Shown here in pieces: positions 2,085 to 60,584 of a DNA stretch of 64,000 nt. The stretch comes from a virus. How positions within the stretch are numbered: position 1 is the stretch's first letter; the number at the start of each line of letters is the position of its first letter. The notes below the pieces were generated by a model. That model was not told the DNA's origin. It saw nothing but the letters and a program-made list of their open reading frames with translations, and ran no database searches. The stretch covers positions 32,001 through 96,000 of IMG/VR virus record IMGVR_UViG_3300025010_000004. One strand, 5' to 3'. Made by a program: the position numbers and the translations under genes.

Positions 2085-2449
2085 TATTTTCCCCTAGCAG
2101 CTTCCATCTCAGCTTTTGTTCTTCGCTTGCGCTTCTGCTTTTGGTTTACCGGAACGGCCACAGGCTTTTCTTCAACCTTTACAGCTTCAACTTCTTCTTT
2201 AGGTGTTCTGGTCTTTTTCGGTCCTTCCTTAGCAGGTGCCTTCTTTTTCTTTCTAATGCTTTTAGGTTCTACGAAATTAGGTATGCCGTACTTAGTCAGA
2301 TACTTCTGCTCTATAAGCAGGGCTTTAATCTTTTCGTAGTTCTCAGTGTAGGTTTTGCACAATTCTTTCACCTTTATCGCACAGCTATAAACACAAATTA
2401 GGGCATTTATCTGGCACTGCCCTCCGTCCTTCTCGCACCATACTATCAT
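2084..2449 (-). CDS. hypothetical protein, Cys-rich N-terminus, basic tail
   Basis: ORF track; abuts or overlaps neighbours. Confidence 0.6.
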   Translation of the reverse strand: MIVWCEKDGGQCQINALICVYSCAIKVKELCKTYTENYEKIKALLIEQKYLTKYGIPNFVEPKSIRKKKKAPAKEGPKKTRTPKEEVEAVKVEEKPVAVPVNQKQKRKRRTKAEMEAARGK

Positions 2450-2640
2450 TTTGCCTCCAATGGCTCATAAATGCGCTCAAAATTATCTGGATTTCCACCA
2501 CCTCTCCAGTAGTCATTCCCTCCATCTATAAAAATGGAGCCACAGCTACACGAAACCCAGTCATGTCTATGTACTGAGACTATAATACCTCCGCACTTCA
2601 AACACTTTGCTTTATTTTTGTACTTTTTATCTTCTTCCAT
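2446..2640 (-). CDS. small putative Zn-binding phage protein
   Basis: CxxC...HRHD...CxCG...DGG motif; strong RBS. Confidence 0.7.
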   Translation of the reverse strand: MEEDKKYKNKAKCLKCGGIIVSVHRHDWVSCSCGSIFIDGGNDYWRGGGNPDNFERIYEPLEAK

Positions 2641-2676
2641 TTTGTCACCTCCTTGTGGGTAGAACTTGTTCTACTT

Positions 2677-4032
2677 CTAGAATGCCAGATCTTCAAATTT
2701 ACAAACATCAAACCTTCTCAACAATTTAAACGGTTTAAGGGCCGGCTCGTTAGGTACTGACTGAAAATTCCTAAAAGCTTTGTATGCCACTGTAGACGTT
2801 CCTGCTTCCTTGTCGCCATTTTCCTGTTTGAGGATAAGGCATAGATCGCAGTCCGCAATTATTCCTCCACCCCACCTAATCTTATCTTCTTTTTCGTCTA
2901 ACTGCACTGGTGTTATAATCCTGCAGTCGTTGTTTCTGGCGAACGTTTTAAGGTCTCTACTTCTAGCCAGAAGGTATTCCCATGATGCTAATGTTTTGTC
3001 TCCACCTCCCCTCGGAACTAACGAGATATAGTCTAGTACAAACGTTCGGACATTCTTCATGTCCACCATCATCTGCATGTAAAGGAATAATTTGTCCCAA
3101 GACCCAGGCTTGTCTGGTATAAAGAATCTATTTTTCTTAGGGGCAAAATGATCCCAGAACAAAGGCCACCACTTGTCGGCATCTTCATTCTTAGTCTGCT
3201 CAATGAAATCTTTCATGTTAGGATTAAAATCACACAAATGACGGACTTCGGCCTCTCGCAGGGCTAGCCGCTGTTCATTTGTTAGCATATTACTGGTTAT
3301 TAGCCCAACATTAATTTCACTTTTAGATGCAAGTATCCTCATCTTAACTTCTGTCTGACTCATCTCGTAAGAGATGTAACAAGAAGACCCTTCATAATTT
3401 TCATGCCCGTAGGTTAGAAACTGTAGAGCTAGTAGCGATTTACCAGCTTTACTAGGAGCACCTACTAATGTTAAACTTTTTTCTGCAAAAGGACCATGCA
3501 TATCTAGCGAAGTCAGCCCAGACTTTCTGAAATTGTACTGGACGCTCTTACCAGCAAGGCGGACCATATCACCAGAATCTAGGTTATCTCCAGCCCCATG
3601 TTGGAACATACTTTCGTACATCTCTTTCATAACAGCCACCGCGTTGTCTTCGTCCCGCTTGTCCACTGAGTCTACTAGCTTTCCAGCGCCGTCTAGTATG
3701 CACCTAAACTGATACTGAGTATGTAGTTTTTTAATTAGATCATCCGTGGTGATGCCTGATGTGTCCTTGGCTTTTATGTCTGAAATAAGATCTACGTAGA
3801 ATCTCTGCTTGTCTGGGTTGGCTACCCTGTTTGTAATCTCCATCTTTAGAACGTCCCACCCAGGAAGTTGATAATGGGTAGTAAAATGAGTGCCTATGAT
3901 GGTGTATATGTTCTGAAGCTCTTTGTTTCCGAATAGCTCTGTAGGAACTGCCATCAATAATTCTGGAGATTTCGATTCTACTATTTTTTTCAGTATCAGC
4001 ATCTCTGCTTGTGTATTTACTATTTTTGACAT
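2677..4032 (-). CDS. DnaB-like replicative helicase
   Basis: Walker A GAPSKAGKS, SYEMS, Walker B FVLDYI, PVQL. Confidence 0.9.
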   Translation of the reverse strand: MSKIVNTQAEMLILKKIVESKSPELLMAVPTELFGNKELQNIYTIIGTHFTTHYQLPGWDVLKMEITNRVANPDKQRFYVDLISDIKAKDTSGITTDDLIKKLHTQYQFRCILDGAGKLVDSVDKRDEDNAVAVMKEMYESMFQHGAGDNLDSGDMVRLAGKSVQYNFRKSGLTSLDMHGPFAEKSLTLVGAPSKAGKSLLALQFLTYGHENYEGSSCYISYEMSQTEVKMRILASKSEINVGLITSNMLTNEQRLALREAEVRHLCDFNPNMKDFIEQTKNEDADKWWPLFWDHFAPKKNRFFIPDKPGSWDKLFLYMQMMVDMKNVRTFVLDYISLVPRGGGDKTLASWEYLLARSRDLKTFARNNDCRIITPVQLDEKEDKIRWGGGIIADCDLCLILKQENGDKEAGTSTVAYKAFRNFQSVPNEPALKPFKLLRRFDVCKFEDLAF

Positions 4033-7891: not shown

Positions 7892-8563
7892 CTACCTTCT
7901 TTTGTACCCATCAACCTCGTAGAAGATGGCGTTGGTAACATCGCACATAGTAAACTTACCACCGAACACTCCGGCAGTGTCTAGATTAATCCTGTTTTCG
8001 CGTATTTCTGGGCCATACTCGTTAGCTGAGTGCCCGTGGATTACCTTCTTACCGAAGTCATGAAATGAGTATAAGAATTCTCCTCTTATCCATGTCATAT
8101 CTTCTTCAGTTTGCTCTTCTAAAGGAATGCCAGGACGGAGCCCAGCGTGAACAAATAGGTACTCTTCAGTCTCGTACCTATACGGTAGGTCGTTTAGAAA
8201 TTTGTAGTGCTCTTTAGGGAAGTCCTCTATAAACGGCCTTTTAAGCATGCCTGCATTGTAATCTCCTAGGTAGCTTTTAATTGTTGTGTTACCACCATTG
8301 AACAGAAATATGTGGTGGGACAGTCTTCCTTTCAAATATTCTAGTAATAGGTCTTCGTGGTTTCCCCTCAACACTATAGTTTTTGGGAACAACTCTTGTA
8401 TTTTTATCAGAATATCTATCATCTTTTTACTATCAGGCCCTCTGTCGATGAAGTCTCCTAGGACTATTAGCCTGTCTTCTTTGGTAAGCTTAGCCTTTTG
8501 GAGAAGTTGTATGAATTGGTTGTAACACCCGTGTATGTCCGATACTACTAGTAGTCTCTCCAT
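7892..8563 (-). CDS. calcineurin-like Ser/Thr protein phosphatase (metallophosphoesterase)
   Basis: SDIHG, GDFIDRG, RGNHE, FVHAG, HGH, LDTAG. Confidence 0.93.
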   Translation of the reverse strand: MERLLVVSDIHGCYNQFIQLLQKAKLTKEDRLIVLGDFIDRGPDSKKMIDILIKIQELFPKTIVLRGNHEDLLLEYLKGRLSHHIFLFNGGNTTIKSYLGDYNAGMLKRPFIEDFPKEHYKFLNDLPYRYETEEYLFVHAGLRPGIPLEEQTEEDMTWIRGEFLYSFHDFGKKVIHGHSANEYGPEIRENRINLDTAGVFGGKFTMCDVTNAIFYEVDGYKRR

Positions 8564-16125: not shown

Positions 16126-16180
16126 ATGAAATATCCTCCTTGTGTATTGCTAGGTTGAAGTAGAACTTGTTCTACCCTTG

Positions 16181-33626: not shown

Positions 33627-34250
33627 TTACGGTTTATTGTTTGATGGAGCTGCGCCACTGAAGCTGACTTTGGGCGCAATCTTCGCTCCCTCGTCAGACT
33701 TGAACGGTGTCTTCTTTTCCAGGTTAAGCAGGAGCGAGTTTGTAATTGAATTTGGGAACGTTCGTATCATGGTGTTGAATTCAGCCACTACTTTGTTGTA
33801 GCGCACACGTTCCGTGTTTATCCGGTTCTCGGTTCCCTCCAATTGGCTTTGCAGATTCATAAAACTTTCATTGGCCTTGAGGTCGGGGTATTTTTCAGTT
33901 ACCATCATAAGCCGAGACAAGGCGGAGCCGATTGTTTGTTGCTGCGCCTGGAACTTGGCCATTTGCGCTGCATCCTGAAGACCTTTAGGATCAAGTTTGA
34001 TTTGACCTACCGAGGCGCGTGCTTGAGCAACCTGTGTAAAGGTTTCTTTTTCGTGGGCAGCGTAGCCCTTTACGACCTCTACGAGGCTGGGGATGAGATC
34101 TGCACGCCGTTGATAAGCAGCCTCAACATCGGCCCACTTGGCAAACACTTGCTCTTCCTTCGCTTGGATGGAGTTGTAGCCGCACCCGCTGTTAATCAAC
34201 ATGAACGCCGCCATTGCCAACATCAGCCCTACTCTTACGAAACTCTTCAT
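33627..34250 (-). CDS. lemA: LemA family protein
   Basis: GYN, QRRADLIP.LV, HEKET, YPDLKAN, LEGTENRI, FP. Confidence 0.95.
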   Translation of the reverse strand: MKSFVRVGLMLAMAAFMLINSGCGYNSIQAKEEQVFAKWADVEAAYQRRADLIPSLVEVVKGYAAHEKETFTQVAQARASVGQIKLDPKGLQDAAQMAKFQAQQQTIGSALSRLMMVTEKYPDLKANESFMNLQSQLEGTENRINTERVRYNKVVAEFNTMIRTFPNSITNSLLLNLEKKTPFKSDEGAKIAPKVSFSGAAPSNNKP

Positions 34251-35594: not shown

Positions 35595-36017
35595 CTATTG
35601 TGCTTCGTTTTTGTCGTAGATAGCGGCATACAAGGGTATATTGGCCGTGCAGCACTGTGAGTTGTAGGCTGCCAAATCGTAGCCTACAACTGCGAACGCC
35701 TTGTACATCATTATCCATAGCTTGAGTTCGGCTATCCTTTTGCGGACTGCCTTGCCGAACACGTAGAAGCGGATGGTGCGTATGATTGGGAGGCGCAGAA
35801 TAGCATATTCTGCTACTGTTGGTAGTCCTTCGTATCTATTACATCTATGCCCTTTTATACTTATCCACGGGCAGGAGTCGCACTTAAGATTACTTACTTT
35901 GCACAAAGAACAACCCGTATAGGTCGTCTTGTGCGTGTATTTACGATACTCCACTATAAGCTGTTCCATAGCCTTGATATTCTCTTTGACGTTTACCGGG
36001 GCCTTAAGCAGTCGCAT
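35595..36017 (-). CDS. hypothetical Cys-containing protein
   Basis: ORF track; CSLC...CDSCP. Confidence 0.55.
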   Translation of the reverse strand: MRLLKAPVNVKENIKAMEQLIVEYRKYTHKTTYTGCSLCKVSNLKCDSCPWISIKGHRCNRYEGLPTVAEYAILRLPIIRTIRFYVFGKAVRKRIAELKLWIMMYKAFAVVGYDLAAYNSQCCTANIPLYAAIYDKNEAQ

Positions 36018-37380
36018 TTTTGATTTCTCCTTTTTCTATGAGGGTTTTAGTGTATAACAGCCCGTCTTCCCTTGTCAAGAACTTTTCTTCCATTTGGTCT
36101 TCATACAGCCGTTGGAGGATAGCGCCGAAATGTTTTCCAGGCTCCATGCCCATATCAATAAGGTCTCGGCCAAGAATAATCGGGGTGACTTGTGATTTTA
36201 TTTCCTCGAACACGCGCATGACCTCAGAAATCCTAGCTGAGTTTTCAGGCTCATATTCAGCGGCTACAACACCACCACGTCCAAGCCTATCCGCCTTGTG
36301 CAATTTTACTAGCTTATACATGTCAACCGAGGCGGCCAACTTGCGCACAGCCTTACGGCTCACCCCTGCTTTCTTAAAATCGTAAGGCCTCATGTGATGC
36401 TTAATGAGATTTATAGCGGATTCAGTAAGTCCTATCTCATTTGTTAGCCGAGCGATAGCCTTTTCAGCCAAAGAAGTCTCTTCCGCGTGACCTTTGAAAT
36501 GAATCTTACCGCTGTCTTCTGTGTTGACCTCATTAGGAACAAGCCCCTTCCCTAAATCATGAAATAAGAGGGCCAGCATAATATCCAATTCCCTGTCAAT
36601 AACAGGAATGGCATCTATTGCCATAAGGGTGTGATTATACACGGAACCTTCTGGATGATACGTGCTTCCTTGTTCAATTTTCTTGGTAGCGACCAGCTCA
36701 GGAAACAGTACATCGAGAATGTCCATAGCCTCAAGCGTCTTGAAGAAAACGGATGGAAGAGGAGCGTTCATTAGAACTCGCACCACTTCATTAAACACTC
36801 GTTCCTGAGGCAGAGCTTTAACTTTAATTGGGCCGTGTACTTTGCATAGCGCCATTGTTTGAGCTTCTATGTTCATGAACGGGTAAATAGCCTTGAACCT
36901 CGCTACTCTCAATATACGCAAAGGGTCTTCCATGAATGTGCCAACATTCACGTGCTTTATGCGCAAGATACGAAGGTCAGGTATCCCATTAAACGGGTCT
37001 TCGAACTTACCCGTCAACGGATCGAGGTAAATAGCGTTCATCGTCAAGTCCCTACGAACCGCTGCCAAGCTCAACGGCAGCTCTTCGCGTATCCTAGCGG
37101 TTAGATCACGGTGTCCTTCGCCAGTTTGCTCATCAAGCCTCGGCAGGCTAACGTCAATATCTTTGACTTTGTAAACTCCGTATTGCTTGCCTACGTAGTT
37201 GACCTCACCGAAAGTTTCGAGAACTGCTTCGAGCTTCTCGGCTGAGAGGTTGAAAACTTCAATGTCTATGTCGGTGGAAGGTATGCCTAGGAGTAAATTT
37301 CTTACGTGGCCTCCTGTATAAAAAACTGAACCTCCCGCCTTGTGAATTGCCAACGATAGTTCAAGCGCAAACTTTTGCAT
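36004..37380 (-). CDS. cca: CCA-adding tRNA nucleotidyltransferase with HD domain
   Basis: GGHVRN...DIDIE, RRDLTMNA, EDPLRILR, ERV..E, HPEG...HT, LFHDLGK. Confidence 0.92.
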   Translation of the reverse strand: MQKFALELSLAIHKAGGSVFYTGGHVRNLLLGIPSTDIDIEVFNLSAEKLEAVLETFGEVNYVGKQYGVYKVKDIDVSLPRLDEQTGEGHRDLTARIREELPLSLAAVRRDLTMNAIYLDPLTGKFEDPFNGIPDLRILRIKHVNVGTFMEDPLRILRVARFKAIYPFMNIEAQTMALCKVHGPIKVKALPQERVFNEVVRVLMNAPLPSVFFKTLEAMDILDVLFPELVATKKIEQGSTYHPEGSVYNHTLMAIDAIPVIDRELDIMLALLFHDLGKGLVPNEVNTEDSGKIHFKGHAEETSLAEKAIARLTNEIGLTESAINLIKHHMRPYDFKKAGVSRKAVRKLAASVDMYKLVKLHKADRLGRGGVVAAEYEPENSARISEVMRVFEEIKSQVTPIILGRDLIDMGMEPGKHFGAILQRLYEDQMEEKFLTREDGLLYTKTLIEKGEIKNATA

Positions 37381-37628
37381 CTTCTTTCTCCTTATGGTAG
37401 AATATGTTCTACTTGTGCTTCTGTCCTTAGTATCACATGCAAGATTACGTGTGCAATGTTATAAGTAAACTAAAGACCCTGCCTCTAATTTGCCAGTAAA
37501 CTGGCGTTTCGAGTTCTCGACTAAGTTTAATTTATCCTTAGAACACCTTTATCTCTTGCATGTGAGACTAAAAACAGAAGCTAGTTCTGTTTTTAGTTTT
37601 ACGGATCAAATCAAGCCGCTATCTGGTA

Positions 37629-37889
37629 TCAGTCGAATCGCACCGTTGCGCCTTTGAAAAGAATACCTGAGCAAACAGTACCGTTAACGCTTGATCCGTT
37701 GGGTGATTTTGCGGAAAATCCCGTATGATAAAAATCATCATCTGAGCAGGCAAAGAAGTTGTAGCCAGTAATTTGAATTTCTTTGTAGCCTTGCGCAGTC
37801 AGAACAGATGTTGCCTTCGATGCATCAGTGCAACCAGATAACAAACAGATGCAGCCCACCAACGTCATTGCCTTCATAGACTTTTTCAT
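37629..37889 (-). CDS. phage lipoprotein
   Basis: Lipobox LSGC; TGY.FF.CS.DD...TGF. Confidence 0.75.
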   Translation of the reverse strand: MKKSMKAMTLVGCICLLSGCTDASKATSVLTAQGYKEIQITGYNFFACSDDDFYHTGFSAKSPNGSSVNGTVCSGILFKGATVRFD

Positions 37890-37913
37890 GTGTTTTCTCC
37901 TTTTATTGTTTAT

Positions 37914-38180
37914 TGCCTAGCTACCCAGCCTAGAGGAATCAGATGGCCAATCTACTAATGCCAAAGACCTTTACCTAGGATTTGAAAGACCTTTAAACTT
38001 TTCCACCTGAACTCTAAGGGTAAGACGCCTGAATATTGAGAGTTGAAGCCTGATCTTTAAGCTTTGAGCTTTGAAGACGGACGACTTTATAGGTCGTGTT
38101 AGCTTTTATATTCTCGCAATAAGAACGCTCTAACCCTTGCGTTAGGGGAGTAGAGTTTACTGATTTCGGGCAACTAGGCA
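37914..38180 (-). ncRNA. putative 267-nt structured RNA directly downstream of the coiled-coil gene
   Basis: Nested helices TGCCTAGTTGCC/GGTAGCTAGGCA, AATCAG/CTGATT and TCTACT/AGTAGA enclose ~7-nt YTCAAAG-like repeats. Confidence 0.65.
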
Positions 38181-38187
38181 GTGTTGA

Positions 38188-38811
38188 TTATTCCGGTACT
38201 TCTACCTCAGTGATAGCGTTGCTTGTTGAAAGCGCCAGGTCAACTTCTCCCTCGAACTCGAAAATGTACTTCTGTAGCTTTTCGATCTCTTCACGAATAG
38301 TGATCTGGTCGATTATGGAGTAGAGGTTGTTTTCCTTGAAGTTCTCTTCAAACTTCTTGTCGGCTTCGTGGTCAACCTTTCCTTCTTTACCACGCGCCAC
38401 TTTGAGCATTTCGTCAAGCCGCGCGTTGGCGTCTTTGTTACCTGTTTCGATTGCCTTCGATATCTTGCCGAACTGGTTACGCAACTCATTGAGCAACTGC
38501 TTCTGGTACTCAATACTGGACTTTCGCTCAATAGCGTCGGCGACGGTGTAAGTAGTGCCAGCAATATCAACTGTCGTTGTAGCGTTGCTGACGACTATGA
38601 TGGCCTTGATCTTGTTGCGCCTATCAACAAGAGCGGTAACTGAATCGTAGCAGCCTTTGATCGTTTCCTTTACCTTTGCCTCATCAGTGAACCCTGCCGG
38701 TAGCGTCTTACCAACTTTCAGCGAGACGAATATACCGCCTGCAATTCCATGCTCGATGCGCTTGCCGAGCGTCTTCAACTCTACCAACAGTGCTGCGATT
38801 GACTTCTTCAT
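38188..38811 (-). CDS. long coiled-coil protein (possibly DIP1984-like)
   Basis: SIA.LL.ELK.L.KRI...SNA.T.V.IAG..YTVADAI.RK...EVD.ALS.SNA.T; family recalled from memory. Confidence 0.6.
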   Translation of the reverse strand: MKKSIAALLVELKTLGKRIEHGIAGGIFVSLKVGKTLPAGFTDEAKVKETIKGCYDSVTALVDRRNKIKAIIVVSNATTTVDIAGTTYTVADAIERKSSIEYQKQLLNELRNQFGKISKAIETGNKDANARLDEMLKVARGKEGKVDHEADKKFEENFKENNLYSIIDQITIREEIEKLQKYIFEFEGEVDLALSTSNAITEVEVPE

Positions 38812-38849
38812 TGATTGTTACCTCCTGAGGTTTGATTGTAGAACAAGTT

Positions 38850-39185
38850 CTACCTGTTAACTATAGTGTTGTAAAGTTCATCCGGCGTCAGTTCTCTGTA
38901 CCTTCCAGTAGGGTTAGCGCTATGTATATTCTCATATTCAAACATACGAGGCTGCGCACATATTTCAACAGCTGATACTTTAGCAGCCTCAATTGTGTCC
39001 TCCAAATCCTGATCGTCGCCGGACAGTGTGGTAATGTACTTACCGATCATGTCCTTTTGCATCTTAACAGCGCAGTCACGTTCGTACTGCGTAACTAGGT
39101 GGCTCTCCATGCGCCAGATAGGAGTATCATTTGAGCACCCTTGCACCATAACTGATACTGCTAAGATTAAAATAAATAGTTTCAT
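38850..39185 (-). CDS. putative lipoprotein
   Basis: Lipobox VQGC. Confidence 0.65.
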   Translation of the reverse strand: MKLFILILAVSVMVQGCSNDTPIWRMESHLVTQYERDCAVKMQKDMIGKYITTLSGDDQDLEDTIEAAKVSAVEICAQPRMFEYENIHSANPTGRYRELTPDELYNTIVNR

Positions 39186-39526: not shown

Positions 39527-40103
39527 TACGATGCCCTCCTAAGGCGTCTGTTGAGGTAGAACAAGTTCTACCATGTGCTGTAAAGCCCTCATAATTAGTG
39601 GTAACATTTTTAAAGCTGAGTGAGGATACACTTCGACGCTAAATTAGCGCTGGGTATACGTCTGCGCTAAATTGGACGTAACTATGCCCAATTATTTAGA
39701 TAGTACAGTACAAACGTTGCGGTTGATTGGTTTAGCAGGAGGTTAAATATTTATCTACATGATGGGAGTTATACGGTGTGAAGAATTCTACGGTGGGGGA
39801 TACTATGATGGAGAATCGCCGGAAGAATGAAGAAGATTTTAGACGCTTCATTAGGGAGAGTTTGGTGGCACGGGCTATGAATTTCTTATTGCAAAGCTGG
39901 ATGAATTGGTTTTTGAGGACTTTTGTGGACTGGTACATGGGTGAGGCCTCCTTGGCTTTCGCCGGTCAGTGCCTGGTTGTACAATTACAACCAAGGCTAT
40001 ACTACACCGCTTTTGTTATCTCAGAGCGGCAACTGAGGTTCCCGCAACGGATTGTGGCAACATAAGTTACCCACGCTCCCTGCGGTCAATCGTTATACTT
40101 TAA

Positions 40104-41517: not shown

Positions 41518-42183
41518 TTACCTCTCTTCTGGTGGTCTATATCCAATCTGCAAAGCGCGGAATATAGATTCCTCTGTTGGAGTTATAAGTTTGCCATTAG
41601 GCGTAAATATACCTTTCTCCGATAACTTCCACCCTCTGCGCTTAGCTTCTTCGCGCATAAGTATGTTTAACCTAGCGGAGCCAGTCCTGTATAGCAACTG
41701 CGGCGCCCAATCTTCTTCATCGACTCTGTTGATATCGAGAGGGACTTCTTCCCAGGTTCCTCTTAATGTAACTGGGCCGTTAATCTTAACTTTAAACTCA
41801 TTCTGACCTACCATGAACTGTTTGAACCGTTCAAATGTATCAGCGTCAGTCTGGAGTATAATATCTACGTCCTTGGAGTCAGGAAGGAGCCTCCTATAGG
41901 AGCCTACAACTTCCCACTTGCCACCTGTCCATTCCAGCATCGGTACTATTTCTGATAATACTTCATCTATTCTAGCGCGAGTTATACGCAGCTCTTTTAC
42001 AGCCTGTAAAGTAGGCTTAGCAGGTAGTAATTGCAGATGTTTGCAAGTACCACGAAACCGAAACCCTTCGCAACTACAGTGCCAGTGTACCTTTTTCTTT
42101 GTGAGAGCATACACTTTCCCATCCCACCTCTCCACTTTATATTCCGTGTCAGACACGGGTATGAGTCGGTATCCGTATAGCAT
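41518..42183 (-). CDS. minimal X-family DNA polymerase with N-terminal SWIM Zn finger
   Basis: CSC......TCKH; GSYRR...DVD; YRTGS..N..MR..A...G.KLSE.G; Y.PPEER. Confidence 0.85.
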   Translation of the reverse strand: MLYGYRLIPVSDTEYKVERWDGKVYALTKKKVHWHCSCEGFRFRGTCKHLQLLPAKPTLQAVKELRITRARIDEVLSEIVPMLEWTGGKWEVVGSYRRLLPDSKDVDIILQTDADTFERFKQFMVGQNEFKVKINGPVTLRGTWEEVPLDINRVDEEDWAPQLLYRTGSARLNILMREEAKRRGWKLSEKGIFTPNGKLITPTEESIFRALQIGYRPPEER

Positions 42184-46310: not shown

Positions 46311-47084
46311 GCACTAACTAACCTATCCGTTAACCTTTAAGGTGATGATTAAGGTAATAACCCCAAATCCTACCGACCCTCGGTTTCCCCAAACATTATA
46401 TAGAATATCAATAATAACAAAGTTTATGGGGGTTATGAAACACTACCTTCACCCAAAACAACCAAAACATAAATCCAATTCTCCCCATACCGCCTTGCCA
46501 TATGTGATTTCAACTACTTAGCAACTACTCTCAAGGTCATTTTCAAGGCCACATTCCAGCAATTTTAGGTGCCTCTATTGCCACCTGGGAGTTGAAACCC
46601 AACCGTCCGGAATGTGACCTTGAAAGTGACCTTGAAGGTTATCTTTTAAAAACCTTCAAGGTCAAGGTAGAACATGTTCTACCCACCGAAAATCAACTCC
46701 ACCTCCGCTAGCGCACAATTAGCCTTTTATCAGGAACTACGATAACCGGCACGATAAGGCCCCGAGCTATAACCCCGTCCTTGAACAGGTTGAATTCATT
46801 TCTGGTATTGGACATAATGCGGTGGATTTTCTCTTTGCCTCTTAGCAGGTCTTTCATTTGCTTCCCTCCTAGGTTTGTGAGGTAGAACATGTTCTACCTT
46901 TTAGTTGTTGGTTTGTTTCTGAAGTAGAGAGTCGATGCGATGCACACAACGGTACACCACGCTAAGAACAATAGCGTTTCTTCTAGGGATGTGAGATGTG
47001 GCATTTGGTAATCCTCCTTATTTTTTAATTAAAGCCGAAGGCGGCTAAATTAAAAAATTATAATGTTCAAATCAAAAATAAAGC

Positions 47085-47200
47085 TTGACAAAATCGCAAA
47101 AGTGTGGTATAATAGAGGCATATCTTGAGTGAAACGAAAGATATGCGGTTATAGGTTTATAAGCCTTTAGGTATGCCTTACCCTAAACCTTAACCTATCT
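47085..47200 (+). ncRNA. promoter + GA/GAA hairpin cassette, copy C
   Basis: Promoter identical to copy A; GCATATCT-TGAGTGAAACGAA-AGATATGC. Confidence 0.5.
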
Positions 47201-47670
47201 ATATTTTCGTGCCGATTCCTGAATGATTCCGAAGGGTTACACAATACACTAATGATTACGGGTATTTATGTGTAGCCTTTATCAGCTTTATTAACCTTCC
47301 AGGCACCTTCAATGTTACCTTGCAATTTATTCAGGCGTAGCCAAGTAATGTGCAAGGTAATGTTGAAGGTAGAAATCAAGTTACTTTCCTTTCAAAGGTA
47401 GAACATGTTCTACCTTCATAGCTTCTGTTTTAAGGCGCAAAAAAGCCGATCTAACGCAATTATAGGTCAGTACCTGGGCATGGATACCCAAGATATGGCT
47501 ATAGTGGTTAGAATCGGCTTGTGGCTTTTTCATAGTTAATTTCCTTATAGCCCTTGTTTCGGCTATTTAGTGTATGTGGTTTATGCTTCAAATTTGACTT
47601 GTAAGGTAATTTGATTAATCACCTTAGCATGAGCTAGAGTAACTAATCAAGTGACCTTACAGGCATGGTT

Positions 47671-49371: not shown

Positions 49372-49874
49372 ACGTATAGTCTACTTAATCTATCGACTAA
49401 GTATATTAGCTTATCTTCATTAATACGGTCAGTCCTCATGCCTGTATTATACACTAGAACAGTGTTATAAAGCCAGCGGAGTATCATTATCCTGGCTTAA
49501 TGAGTATACGTGGGGGCGGTGCGCTCATTAGAGCCGTTTTAATGAGAGCTATTTCCCATCCGTTCCACCTGAATAGTTATTTTAAACGTTACATAATTGT
49601 AACAACCAAACATAACCATAAACATTATTTAAGTCACTTTCAATACCACCTTCAAGACTACCTTAAACATCACCATAAAGGTTACCTTTAAGGTTACCTT
49701 AACATCACCTTAACCCGCACCTACCCAGTATTTTACTTAAGGCACCCCAAAGATTACCTTAAATGTTACTTTCAATATCACCACAAACATTACATTAAAC
49801 ATCACCATAAAAGTAACCTTCAAGATCAATTCCTAAAATTTAAAAATAAATACCAAATACTATATAGCCATATA

Positions 49875-49906
49875 AGAAAAGCCTCTCTATAAAATAGAGA
49901 GGCTTC
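49875..49906 (-). terminator. intrinsic terminator ending leftward transcription from 50-60 kb
   Basis: AAGCCTCTCTAT/ATAGAGAGGCTT stem followed by a T-rich run on the minus strand. Confidence 0.75.
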
Positions 49907-50135
49907 CTTCTTCCATAAAAAATTTGGTCAAACGCTATATAACCCTACCATCCATATAGAGTATCGCGTCTAAAACTACAACACCTCTCCCTCAAGCTTC
50001 TTAATCGACTCGTCAAACCTCATAACGTCATCAATCAAGCAATCTACTATGCCATCCAATTCTCCAACCTCATCGTCAAGCTCTTCAAACATCTGCTCAA
50101 GCTTTTCCAACCTACTCAATATGTTTTTAATATTA

Positions 50136-60252: not shown

Positions 60253-60281
60253 ATTATACCATACTTTGCCCAAAAAGTCAA
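60253..60281 (-). promoter_or_regulatory. sigma-70 promoter for the glycosyltransferase operon
   Basis: TTGACT-17-TATAAT. Confidence 0.8.
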
Positions 60282-60339
60282 GTAAAATATTTCAATTTGG
60301 AAAAATAAAAAATTATTTTCACTTTCTGAAAGATTTTAC

Positions 60340-60470
60340 TTGACAAATTTCAATTTCTGTGGTATGATGCATTCATCGAGCCGTTAGGCGAAGATGAATG
60401 CTAAGAGGTTGTCATGGTGTTGACTTTGACTTATGCCTTTATATGCCTCCCCTACCCCTAAACATTATTT
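60340..60470 (+). ncRNA. promoter + GA/GAA hairpin cassette, copy D
   Basis: TTGACA-17-TATGAT; hairpin identical to copy B. Confidence 0.5.
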
Positions 60471-60491
60471 TATACGCCTTTCATTTTTTTC

Positions 60492-60520
60492 TTGACTTTT
60501 GGTGAAAAGTGTGGTATAAT
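60492..60520 (+). promoter_or_regulatory. sigma-70 promoter for the packaging operon
   Basis: TTGACT-17-TATAAT with TGTGG. Confidence 0.82.
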
Positions 60521-60584
60521 AGGTTTATTTTAAATTAATAAAAAAATAAGATTTTAGGTATATAAAAGATATAGGAGAAGTTGA

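Follow-up and report, generated by a model that had tools for sequence, protein, structure and literature searches.

Why should a gene-dense phage genome leave almost 300 nucleotides free of genes behind a small protein gene? The question is raised by a locus in a stretch of viral DNA of 64,000 nucleotides (nt), referred to here as the window. This window comprises bases 32,001-96,000 of the 113,294-bp virus record IMGVR_UViG_3300025010_000004, which has direct terminal repeats and represents a T5-sized phage. The locus studied consists of a 207-residue protein gene on the minus strand (38188..38811) and the 298-nt gap behind the gene (37890..38187). An earlier note, made from the sequence alone, proposed that the gap holds a 267-nt RNA of nested stems and heptamer repeats that works together with the protein. 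The comparisons described below show that gene and RNA are a widespread, self-contained two-part unit (hereafter the module), composed of a gene for a helical protein of about 205 residues and an RNA that is real, structured and multiply pseudoknotted.

The gap is indeed large for this part of the genome. It ranks third among the 121 intergenic gaps of the window, which have a median length of 25 nt, and it contains no open reading frame (ORF) longer than 24 amino acids. A promoter and terminator scan of its minus strand predicts nothing. Folding and homologue comparison place the whole RNA, from one strand of its closing helix P1 to the other, at 37914..38180 on the minus strand. It thus spans 267 nt and begins 7 nt past the TAA stop codon of the protein gene, where the earlier note had put it.

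Linkage of the protein gene to a downstream RNA

The closest relative of the protein, encoded at a locus designated L002, is 47% identical, and an element of the same build lies behind its gene. The closing helix of the L002 element has another sequence with its complementarity kept, and its repeats read GUUCAGA. The motifs AAAUCCUAGG and CUAGGCUG are common to both elements. A pattern derived from these two motifs retrieves two further viral contigs, one of them AT-rich, in which the element again directly follows a homologue of the protein gene. Vibrio phage Chester, a T5-like phage, Bacillus phage BCP8-2 and Pseudomonas phage phiPsa374 carry unannotated gaps of 365-504 nt at the same place and with the same anatomy.

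A covariance model of the 3' domain of the RNA (R1) was used to measure how regular this arrangement is in loci that had been collected through the protein. The model scores 75.7 bits in the window (E = 1.3e-14). In 78 of 80 viral loci and in 77 of 79 bacterial ones, its match falls immediately 3' of the gene and on the gene's own strand, and only three weak matches occur elsewhere in the roughly 1.3 Mb covered. Stop codon and P1 are separated by a median of 18 nt, and the RNAs range from 264 to 468 nt. No conserved third gene accompanies the pair beyond genus-level synteny. The coupling of gene and RNA that the earlier note had proposed for a single locus is thus seen in very distant phages and bacteria.

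The module has further been found in Herelleviridae, Vibrio and Pseudomonas phages, the chromosomes of Bacillaceae and the tRNA arrays of cyanobacteria. Its RNA is not rare, given that the protein family comprises 3,669 clusters at 50% identity and that the RNA is found in 441 T5-like records. One contig of 349,050 bp (IMGVR_UViG_3300024999_000029) carries two whole modules, L035 and L040, that are 157 kb apart. Either the contig stems from a giant phage that has the module in duplicate, or a ~154-kb genome such as that of L034 was assembled twice over. In Pseudobacteroides cellulosolvens (L137, 7540-9339), the module adjoins genes for a TOTE conflict-system primase-helicase and a SUKH-family protein, which suggests a defence-island setting.

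Architecture of the RNA

Folded as a single sequence, the RNA of the window has a minimum free energy of -80.8 kcal/mol with a z score of -2.86, and none of 100 shuffled sequences folds as well. Comparison with homologues resolves seven helices that include three pseudoknots, formed by P2 with Px, by P3 with P4, and by an H-type pseudoknot near the 5' end. Read from the 5' end, the order is the 5' strand of P1, a Y-GAAA junction, the 5' strands of P2 and P3, the H-type pseudoknot, the motif GGUUA, variable hairpins and the heptamer array. After the array follow AAAU, the 5' strand of Px, hairpin P4 with the 3' strand of P3 in its loop, the 3' strand of P2, a joiner of 3-4 nt, the 3' strand of Px, the motif CUG and the 3' strand of P1. 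The knotted ends of the RNA thereby close a large loop that displays the phased units of the array, roughly 7-15 in number across the family.

In the window, all of these parts lie on the minus strand. The 5' strand of P1 (38169..38180) is followed by the conserved junction C-GAAA (38164-38168), and the 3' strand occupies 37914..37925. The closing helix pairs UGCCUAGUUGCC with GGUAGCUAGGCA over 12 bp and, as the earlier note had described, includes G-U pairs, two in number. Its flanks are those of the module at large (UGCCUAGUUGCC-CGAAA ... GGCUG-GGUAGCUAGGCA). The 5' strand of P2, AAUCAG (38160..38165), pairs with CUGAUU (37937..37942), and the 5' strand of P3, UCUACU (38149..38154), pairs with AGUAGA (37951-37956) in the loop of hairpin P4 (UGGC/GCCA, 37944..37963). 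The 5' H-type pseudoknot, in which CCCU/AGGG is interleaved with AACGC/GCGUU, occupies 38124..38147 and is followed by the conserved GGUUA. The invariant AAAU and the 5' strand of Px, CCUAG, are at 37975..37983, where the hexamer AAAUCC is nearly invariant among homologues, and the 3' strand of Px, CUAGG, stands with the conserved CUG at 37926..37933.

The evidence for the closing helix and for Px comes from covariation in a full-length MAFFT alignment of 40 sequences. P1 is 88.9% paired over these sequences, with both sides changed in 12 of its 12 pairs. Px, the pseudoknot that the earlier note had listed as possible, proves to be the best-supported helix of all. It is 99% paired, four of its five pairs have changed on both sides, and its middle positions show the four pair types UA, AU, GC and CG. 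The covariation score of the whole structure is 0.456, a value that none of 500 shuffles reaches; shuffled data give 0.159, and sliding the partners against each other yields no more than 0.211. The YGAAA sequence follows P1 in 53 of 64 distinct copies.

MAFFT places P2, P3, P4 and the 5' pseudoknot imperfectly, leaving their columns 50-69% paired. For this reason, the shorter helices were assessed by alignment-free tests on the 40 homologues, in which strands from the same RNA (cognate) are compared with strands from different RNAs (non-cognate). The P2 duplex is worth -5.6 kcal/mol for cognate and -2.4 kcal/mol for non-cognate strands (p = 6.5e-12), and a control with swapped regions is not significant. 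For P3, the values are -8.6 and -5.3 kcal/mol (p = 1.5e-12), and the swapped-region control shows nothing. The two long-range helices of the earlier note are thus present and supported across the homologues. P3 also shows a compensatory change in L002 (UAGAC/GUCUA). The P4 test gives p = 7e-4, with the variants GAGU/ACUC, AGGU/ACCU and UCGU/ACGA among homologues, and the region of the 5' pseudoknot gives p = 3e-4. A pseudoknot of at least 9 bp is found at the expected 5' place in 35 of 40 homologues, compared with 84 of 200 shuffled sequences.

Two smaller features of the earlier description are also present. The local hairpin ACGAC...GUCGU is found by folding at 38081..38097 on the minus strand, though it belongs to a variable region and is not conserved in the alignment. 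The sequence UAAAGGUCUUU does occur twice in the RNA.

Could the element nevertheless lack a function as RNA, and be a fold that arose by chance, the region of a terminator or what is left of a gene? A single-sequence z score of -2.86 is modest when taken alone. However, position, strand and seven helices with compensatory changes are kept in more than 150 loci from several phyla, and the gap holds no ORF above the 24-residue length given above. A non-functional origin is refuted by the linkage in viral and bacterial loci together with the covariation, and we give it practically no weight.

Complex RNAs with multiple pseudoknots are rare, and those that have been studied are usually important, as ribozymes, riboswitches, tmRNA and guide RNAs illustrate. 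The complexity of this fold is in the range of ribozymes, and tRNA genes are common neighbours of the module. One might therefore consider an RNA that is catalytic or processes tRNA, similar to RNase P or another ribozyme, with the protein as its cofactor. The order of its strands (P1, P2, Px 5', P2 3', joiner, Px 3', P1 3') is that of P1, P2 and P4 in RNase P RNA, and its AAAUCC and GGCUG bring to mind the RNase P motifs AAAGUCC of CR-I and GGCUUA of CR-V. Nevertheless, the ribozyme models of Rfam, those for RNase P included, give no match even at E <= 10, and the differences within AAAUCC and GGCUG would break two P4 pairs of RNase P. The bulk of the RNA sits where RNase P has only P3, and a long single-stranded repeat array is without counterpart in known ribozymes. 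A catalytic role of this kind is very unlikely in our estimate. RNase P RNA itself was rejected as an identity, since neither the bacterial nor the archaeal models match at E <= 10 and the likeness is confined to strand order and two short motifs.

A tandem array of heptamers

Between the variable hairpins and the 3' domain, about 12 units, each 6-8 nt long, form a single-stranded array (37984..38076 on the minus strand). The units in the window include UUCAAAG, CUCAAAG, CUUAAAG, AUCAGG, CUUCAAC and UUUAAAG in addition to degenerate ones, and the run beginning with CUUCAAAG that the earlier note had read as repeats of ~7 nt is among them. Across the family, sequence identity at a lag of 7 nt in the central region is 0.409, compared with 0.310 after shuffling, with echoes at lags 14 and 21. 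The spacing from one AAG to the next peaks at 7 nt, with 85 cases in phage copies and 151 in bacterial copies. The unit consensus, UUYAAAG, is alike in phages of Proteobacteria, in phages of Bacillota and in cyanobacteria, with variants such as UUCAGAG in L002 and CUCAAAU in L004. An array that serves as a coding or tag frame was ruled out, as phasing by 7 nt rotates the reading frame.

Because the heptamer motif is the same in hosts of three phyla, it should be read either by the protein that is inherited with it or by some universal machinery of the host. The second option leads to an account in which the RNA, as a decoy or sponge, would soak up a universal component of the host and not its own protein. 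This component might be a ribonuclease or a factor that binds single-stranded RNA, such as ribosomal protein S1; alternatively, the array would dock tRNA anticodon loops. The protein would then fold, protect or deliver the RNA. A consensus that stays the same in E. coli, Bacillus and cyanobacterial hosts speaks for this account. Units of 7 nt also have the size of an anticodon loop and fit the pattern Y-U-NNN-R-N. AAAG/UU would suit the RNase E preference RN/WUU and the preference of RNase Y for cleavage behind a G, and the sequence UUAAAAG could pair along its whole length with the tRNA-Lys(UUU) loop CUUUUAA, of which it is the exact complement. Unit position 3 is, however, mostly U or C rather than the A needed for full complementarity to tRNA-Lys. 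The decoy account also leaves unexplained a dedicated protein that is co-inherited in 155 of 159 loci. On balance we find it unlikely.

The partner protein

The protein gene is preceded by the strong ribosome binding site (RBS) that the earlier note had pointed out, AGGAGGT at 38820-38826. Its product matches phrog_1491 over its full length (E = 6.1e-58), with residues 4-205 aligned to profile positions 6-209 of 211, and belongs to the family of T5.085. The phrog_1491 name 'tail fiber protein' is without contextual support and looks like a propagated annotation error. Searches of Pfam, NCBIfam and PADLOC assign the protein to no family, and NCBIfam yields none even at E <= 1. In the ESM Atlas, only unnamed clusters are found; DUF6847, assigned to 16% of one neighbouring cluster with a score of 0.89, is a lead only. 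Nearly all members of the family are stand-alone proteins of 202-217 residues. One member, P0107, has 474 residues and three matched stretches, whereas the other top matches have 202-222 residues, and a tandemly duplicated or fused form of the protein therefore exists.

An AlphaFold2 model of the protein (predicted local distance difference test score, pLDDT, 91.7) consists of long helical hairpins and a small sheet, to which both termini and a hairpin at residues 80-89 contribute. Invariant residues, including two SNAxT motifs, cluster at this sheet in the model. Sequence-profile comparison with the Protein Data Bank gives weak matches only, in which 3kdq has an E value of 0.052. The same entry, an uncharacterised Corynebacterium protein, is the top structural match in both searches made with the model. 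Foldseek finds 3KDQ with an E value of 0.016 and a probability of 0.99, and VIA aligns 151 of 152 residues with a Z score of 10.0 and a root-mean-square deviation of 8.0, where Z scores below about 13 can be generic for helical bundles. A fold like that of 3KDQ, which is also described as DIP1984-like, is thus suggested by the models rather than proved.

Modelling supports a homodimer as the predicted state of the protein, with a conserved polar site. Three runs give an ipSAE score of 0.63, agree in at least 96% of their contacts and place the partner chain with a pLDDT of at least 88, whereas the best of three control runs scores 0.00. By calibration, the mark used is reached by 20 of 30 solved homo-pairs and by 1 of 23 single chains. 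These predictions are in line with the oligomeric helical protein that the earlier note had postulated.

The module in phage T5

In phage T5, the protein is encoded by T5.085, a gene that is annotated as 'tail fiber protein' yet lies in the early region. The RNA of T5 (NC_005859, 43142-43493) is unannotated and lies between the T5.085 stop codon and an annotated promoter. It is present in 441 T5-like GenBank records at 90% identity or more, and none of the 40 listed carries an annotation for it. Because T5 has the module, it is open to E. coli genetics, pull-down experiments and cryo-electron microscopy.

Thirteen public RNA sequencing runs from several studies include this region, and those compared here are assembled contigs, whose levels and ends are hints only. 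In one RNA immunoprecipitation sequencing (RIP-seq) run, contigs break at position 8330 of the T5 locus (L104), where an adapter is attached, and at 7965. These breaks are 9 nt before and 6 nt after the RNA as delimited by P1 (L104 8321..7971). The contig depth in the same run is 831 for the RNA, 328 for the gene and 477 downstream. In a run of another study, an adapter-joined end lies at L104 7980, and one contig reaches from the RNA through the gene. Uncovered stretches at L104 7954-7964 in one run and 7944-7979 in another prove nothing alone. The pattern as a whole fits co-transcription of gene and RNA that is followed by the appearance of a discrete RNA of about 350-366 nt.

Two further observations concern T5. 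Short contigs that cover the 5' ~60 nt of the RNA (L104 8270-8330) in one RIP-seq run have depths of 2,350-3,833, compared with 831 for the remainder of the RNA, which may reflect a stable 5' fragment or an assembly artefact. The T5 record also annotates rnaX, a 719-nt 'stable RNA with unknown functions' that lies beside a tRNA-Arg gene 1.6 kb downstream of the module (L090 4428-5146). The consulted passages of a DRT9 study with RIP-seq and RNA-seq on T5-infected cells (PMC12483538) make no mention of the module RNA.

Transcript data also bear on whether the element acts only in cis, as an untranslated regulator such as an operator for spreading of the protein that controls its own operon or the next gene. 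In the window, the next gene encodes an 86-residue lipoprotein-like protein of phrog_902 (37629..37889, minus strand) and belongs to the same transcription unit. Its RBS begins 15 nt past the RNA and its start codon is 24 nt from the RNA end, an arrangement that would suit regulation in cis, as would a gap in which no promoter or terminator is predicted and the T5 contig that spans gene and RNA. Such an element would resemble the leader of T4 gene 32, with its pseudoknot and UUAAA repeats. However, the lipoprotein-like gene is not conserved beside the module in other loci. The downstream position is variously taken by this gene, by T5.084 with its own promoter, by tRNAs, by PARG or by a gene on the opposite strand. 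Seven helices and three pseudoknots far exceed the needs of an operator, and in T5 the contigs are interrupted at either end of the RNA. We hold a purely cis-acting element to be quite improbable.

Association with tRNA genes

Genes for tRNAs lie within 1.5 kb of the module in 37 of 80 viral loci, and all 104 of them are on the strand of the module. The window itself contains six tRNA genes. It also encodes, 0.5 kb downstream of the module, a nucleotidyltransferase of the CCA-adding or poly(A) polymerase type with an HD domain (36004-37380, minus strand). Eleven bacterial loci have 3-28 tRNA genes within 6 kb, the cyanobacterial ones having 4-28. In Calothrix, Phormidium, Tolypothrix and other cyanobacteria, the module is found inside tRNA arrays.

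Long tRNA arrays ('L-arrays') aid the survival of Anabaena under translational stress, and the figures of the paper that reports this show embedded hypothetical genes without studying them (PMC8421152). At one such locus, in Calothrix sp. PCC 7716 (L192, 4110-10638), a 23-tRNA array is joined on the same strand by the module and by genes for a microbial PARG-type macrodomain, an RNA ligase and an additional EF-Tu. Such a set of genes resembles a mobile kit that would supply translation with spare or repair parts. Clusters and arrays of tRNA genes are regarded as putative anti-defence kits (PMC12803027), and the fact that the module rides in them counts in favour of the decoy account given above. 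In Lysinibacillus, the module occupies a syntenic chromosomal site among housekeeping genes and is apparently inherited vertically.

A candidate ribonucleoprotein

What, then, might the module make? The explanation we prefer is a dedicated protein-RNA particle, in which the protein, as homodimers, would occupy the heptamer array and the pseudoknotted core would serve as a clamp. Binding of the protein to the RNA is part of what is proposed, and the chances that this explanation is correct seem to us evenly balanced. Gene and RNA would be expressed from one transcript and then assemble into the ribonucleoprotein. The pseudoknotted core would clamp the loop shut and protect both ends of the RNA, and it may also nucleate assembly. 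The effector may be the RNA, with the protein as its chaperone, or the RNA may restrain the protein.

The particle could act in trans on tRNA or on translation. This role is plausible but weaker than the proposal of a particle as such, and it is inferred because the module travels with phage tRNA clusters and cyanobacterial tRNA arrays, one of them with the spare EF-Tu, RNA ligase and PARG genes, and because a CCA-adding enzyme gene lies so near in the window. A more specific version is that the module produces an unrecognised ribonucleoprotein of mobile 'translation back-up kits'. The dimeric protein would coat or gate a row of UUYAAAG units on the knotted core, and these anticodon-loop-sized units would capture tRNAs or act as decoys, drawing off the ribonucleases or other factors by which tRNA and mRNA are attacked when phage and host are in conflict or translation is under stress. 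This version is speculative, and we entertain it tentatively. If true, it would define a new class of functional RNA that is present in the model phage T5. The steady company of tRNA genes, and in one cyanobacterial array of EF-Tu, RNA ligase and PARG genes, bears on what else phages and mobile tRNA arrays carry to sustain translation under attack.

Several observations weigh against the proposed particle. The number of units varies from 3 to 15 in a position-weight scan, which makes a closed ring of fixed size unlikely, and the array of the window is more degenerate than those of most relatives. Judged from its sequence, the protein is not markedly basic. Several of its most conserved residues (76-78, 89, 91-92 and 95-96) lie in the interface of the dimer model and not on an obvious RNA-binding face. 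The T5 read evidence consists of assembled contigs, from which levels and ends are not reliably measurable. Finally, the modules of Lysinibacillus and other Bacillaceae are without nearby tRNA genes, so that the link to tRNA is not universal.

Genomic surroundings

The region of the locus has no blastn match among 50,697 phage records, and this phage therefore has no close sequenced relative in that set. Nearly all genes around the locus are on the minus strand. They include those for a small protein similar to DNA polymerase beta, with palm and thumb (41518-42183, minus strand), and for a LemA-family protein (33627-34250, minus strand).

The transcription unit of the module starts near a palindrome, GTAGAACAAGTTCTAC, at 38838-38853. 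The earlier note had taken this palindrome to be the gene's own. It is present, but it is one copy of a genome-wide motif, the 16-bp palindrome GTAGAAC-NN-GTTCTAC, which occurs 26 times in the window where 0.22 copies are expected. Further sites include 2659-2674, 16160-16175, 37397-37412 and 39556-39571, and eight lie between 44362 and 48843. Those copies that were compared with the ORF map lie just upstream of a gene on the minus strand. The copy that follows that of the module (37397-37412) stands before the gene for the CCA-adding enzyme. The motif is probably a promoter, operator or terminator signal of the phage itself. In L002, an analogous but different palindrome, GCGACATGTCGC, flanks the RNA on both sides and also precedes the gene.

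Directly past the lipoprotein-like gene are a 28-nt inverted repeat with arms 109 nt apart (37417-37444 and 37554-37581) and an 18-bp hairpin with a 5-nt loop (37562-37602). Together they probably form the terminator of a unit that comprises the protein gene, the RNA and the lipoprotein-like gene. The window has other long gaps free of ORFs at 46891-47380 (490 nt), 60274-60584 (311 nt), 49692-49975 (284 nt) and 39527-39777 (251 nt). None of these four has an Rfam match at the gathering threshold, and they might be further non-coding RNAs or regulatory regions.

Comparison with known RNAs and ribonucleoproteins

Searches with Rfam 15, at the gathering threshold for the whole window and at E <= 10 for 37600-38500, return tRNAs and noise only, and no family matches the RNA of the window. 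The earlier note knew of no description of such a system. This statement holds for the literature on the module, of which none was found, and needs one correction. RAGATH-27 (RF03100) covers the 5' 86 nt of the RNA in a clade from gut phages, that is, the 5' strand of P1, a GAAAA junction, the 5' strands of P2 and P3 and the first hairpin. Three loci of the module score 97 bits (L053), 88 bits (L074) and 78.5 bits (L047), above the cut-off of 76.1. The RAGATH-27 model differs from the module in that it consists of a single hairpin, and long-range helices, pseudoknots, the array and the 3' domain are all absent from it. In the window it finds no match even at E <= 10, its threshold of 76.1 bits not being reached. 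No function or protein partner is recorded for RAGATH-27, and no paper that mentions the name was found. Apart from this 86-nt fragment, neither the RNA nor its partner nor a function for them was found described in the literature.

A precedent for a RAGATH motif that turns out to be the RNA partner of a protein encoded just upstream is RAGATH-18, the reRNA of IS607 TnpB (PMC11061315). TnpB is an RNA-guided nuclease, whereas the protein of the module matches no nuclease or other known catalytic domain.

GOLLD and ROOL are large, intricate RNAs of unknown function in phages and prophages, often beside tRNA genes. The module RNA is smaller, matches neither of their Rfam models, and comes with a dedicated protein gene and a repeat array.

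The overall plan of the module is closer to that of tmRNA with SmpB and of Y RNA with Ro or Rsr. In these systems, too, a small protein gene lies beside an RNA of 250-400 nt with paired ends, the single-stranded part that carries the function has pseudoknots on either side, and the setting is one of tRNA or translation. The module RNA differs in being without a tRNA-like domain, T-arm, CCA end or tag frame, and its all-helical protein is unrelated to SmpB and Ro. Neither ARAGORN nor Rfam finds a tmRNA or Y RNA in the window.

The operator of T4 gene 32 combines a pseudoknot with unstructured UUAAA repeats, and gp32 covers about 7 nt per monomer. It shares with the module a pseudoknot that adjoins a lattice of A/U-rich repeats, on which a protein could be laid down cooperatively at 7 nt per site. 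The T4 element is, however, a 5' leader that controls the translation of its own gene, while the module RNA lies on the 3' side of its gene, has its ends joined by P1 and shows up as an RNA of its own in T5 contigs.

Oligomers that read repeats in RNA are known from TRAP and the trp leader, HutP and hut mRNA, CsrA and CsrB, and ToxN and ToxI. The module differs from all of these in that its units of 7 nt are set in a knotted scaffold, its RNA is 3' of the gene and its helical protein, for which binding is proposed here, has an unrelated fold. A type III toxin-antitoxin system similar to ToxIN would have repeats of ~36 nt upstream of an endoribonuclease gene with the ToxN/AbiQ fold, whereas the repeats of the module are 7 nt long and downstream, and its protein is helical in the model and matches nothing in PADLOC or Pfam. 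Like ToxIN, the module is nevertheless a mobile unit of two parts, one RNA and one protein gene. With TRAP, HutP, CsrA and ToxN it shares many evenly spaced short RNA units, a likeness that suggests one protein subunit per unit.

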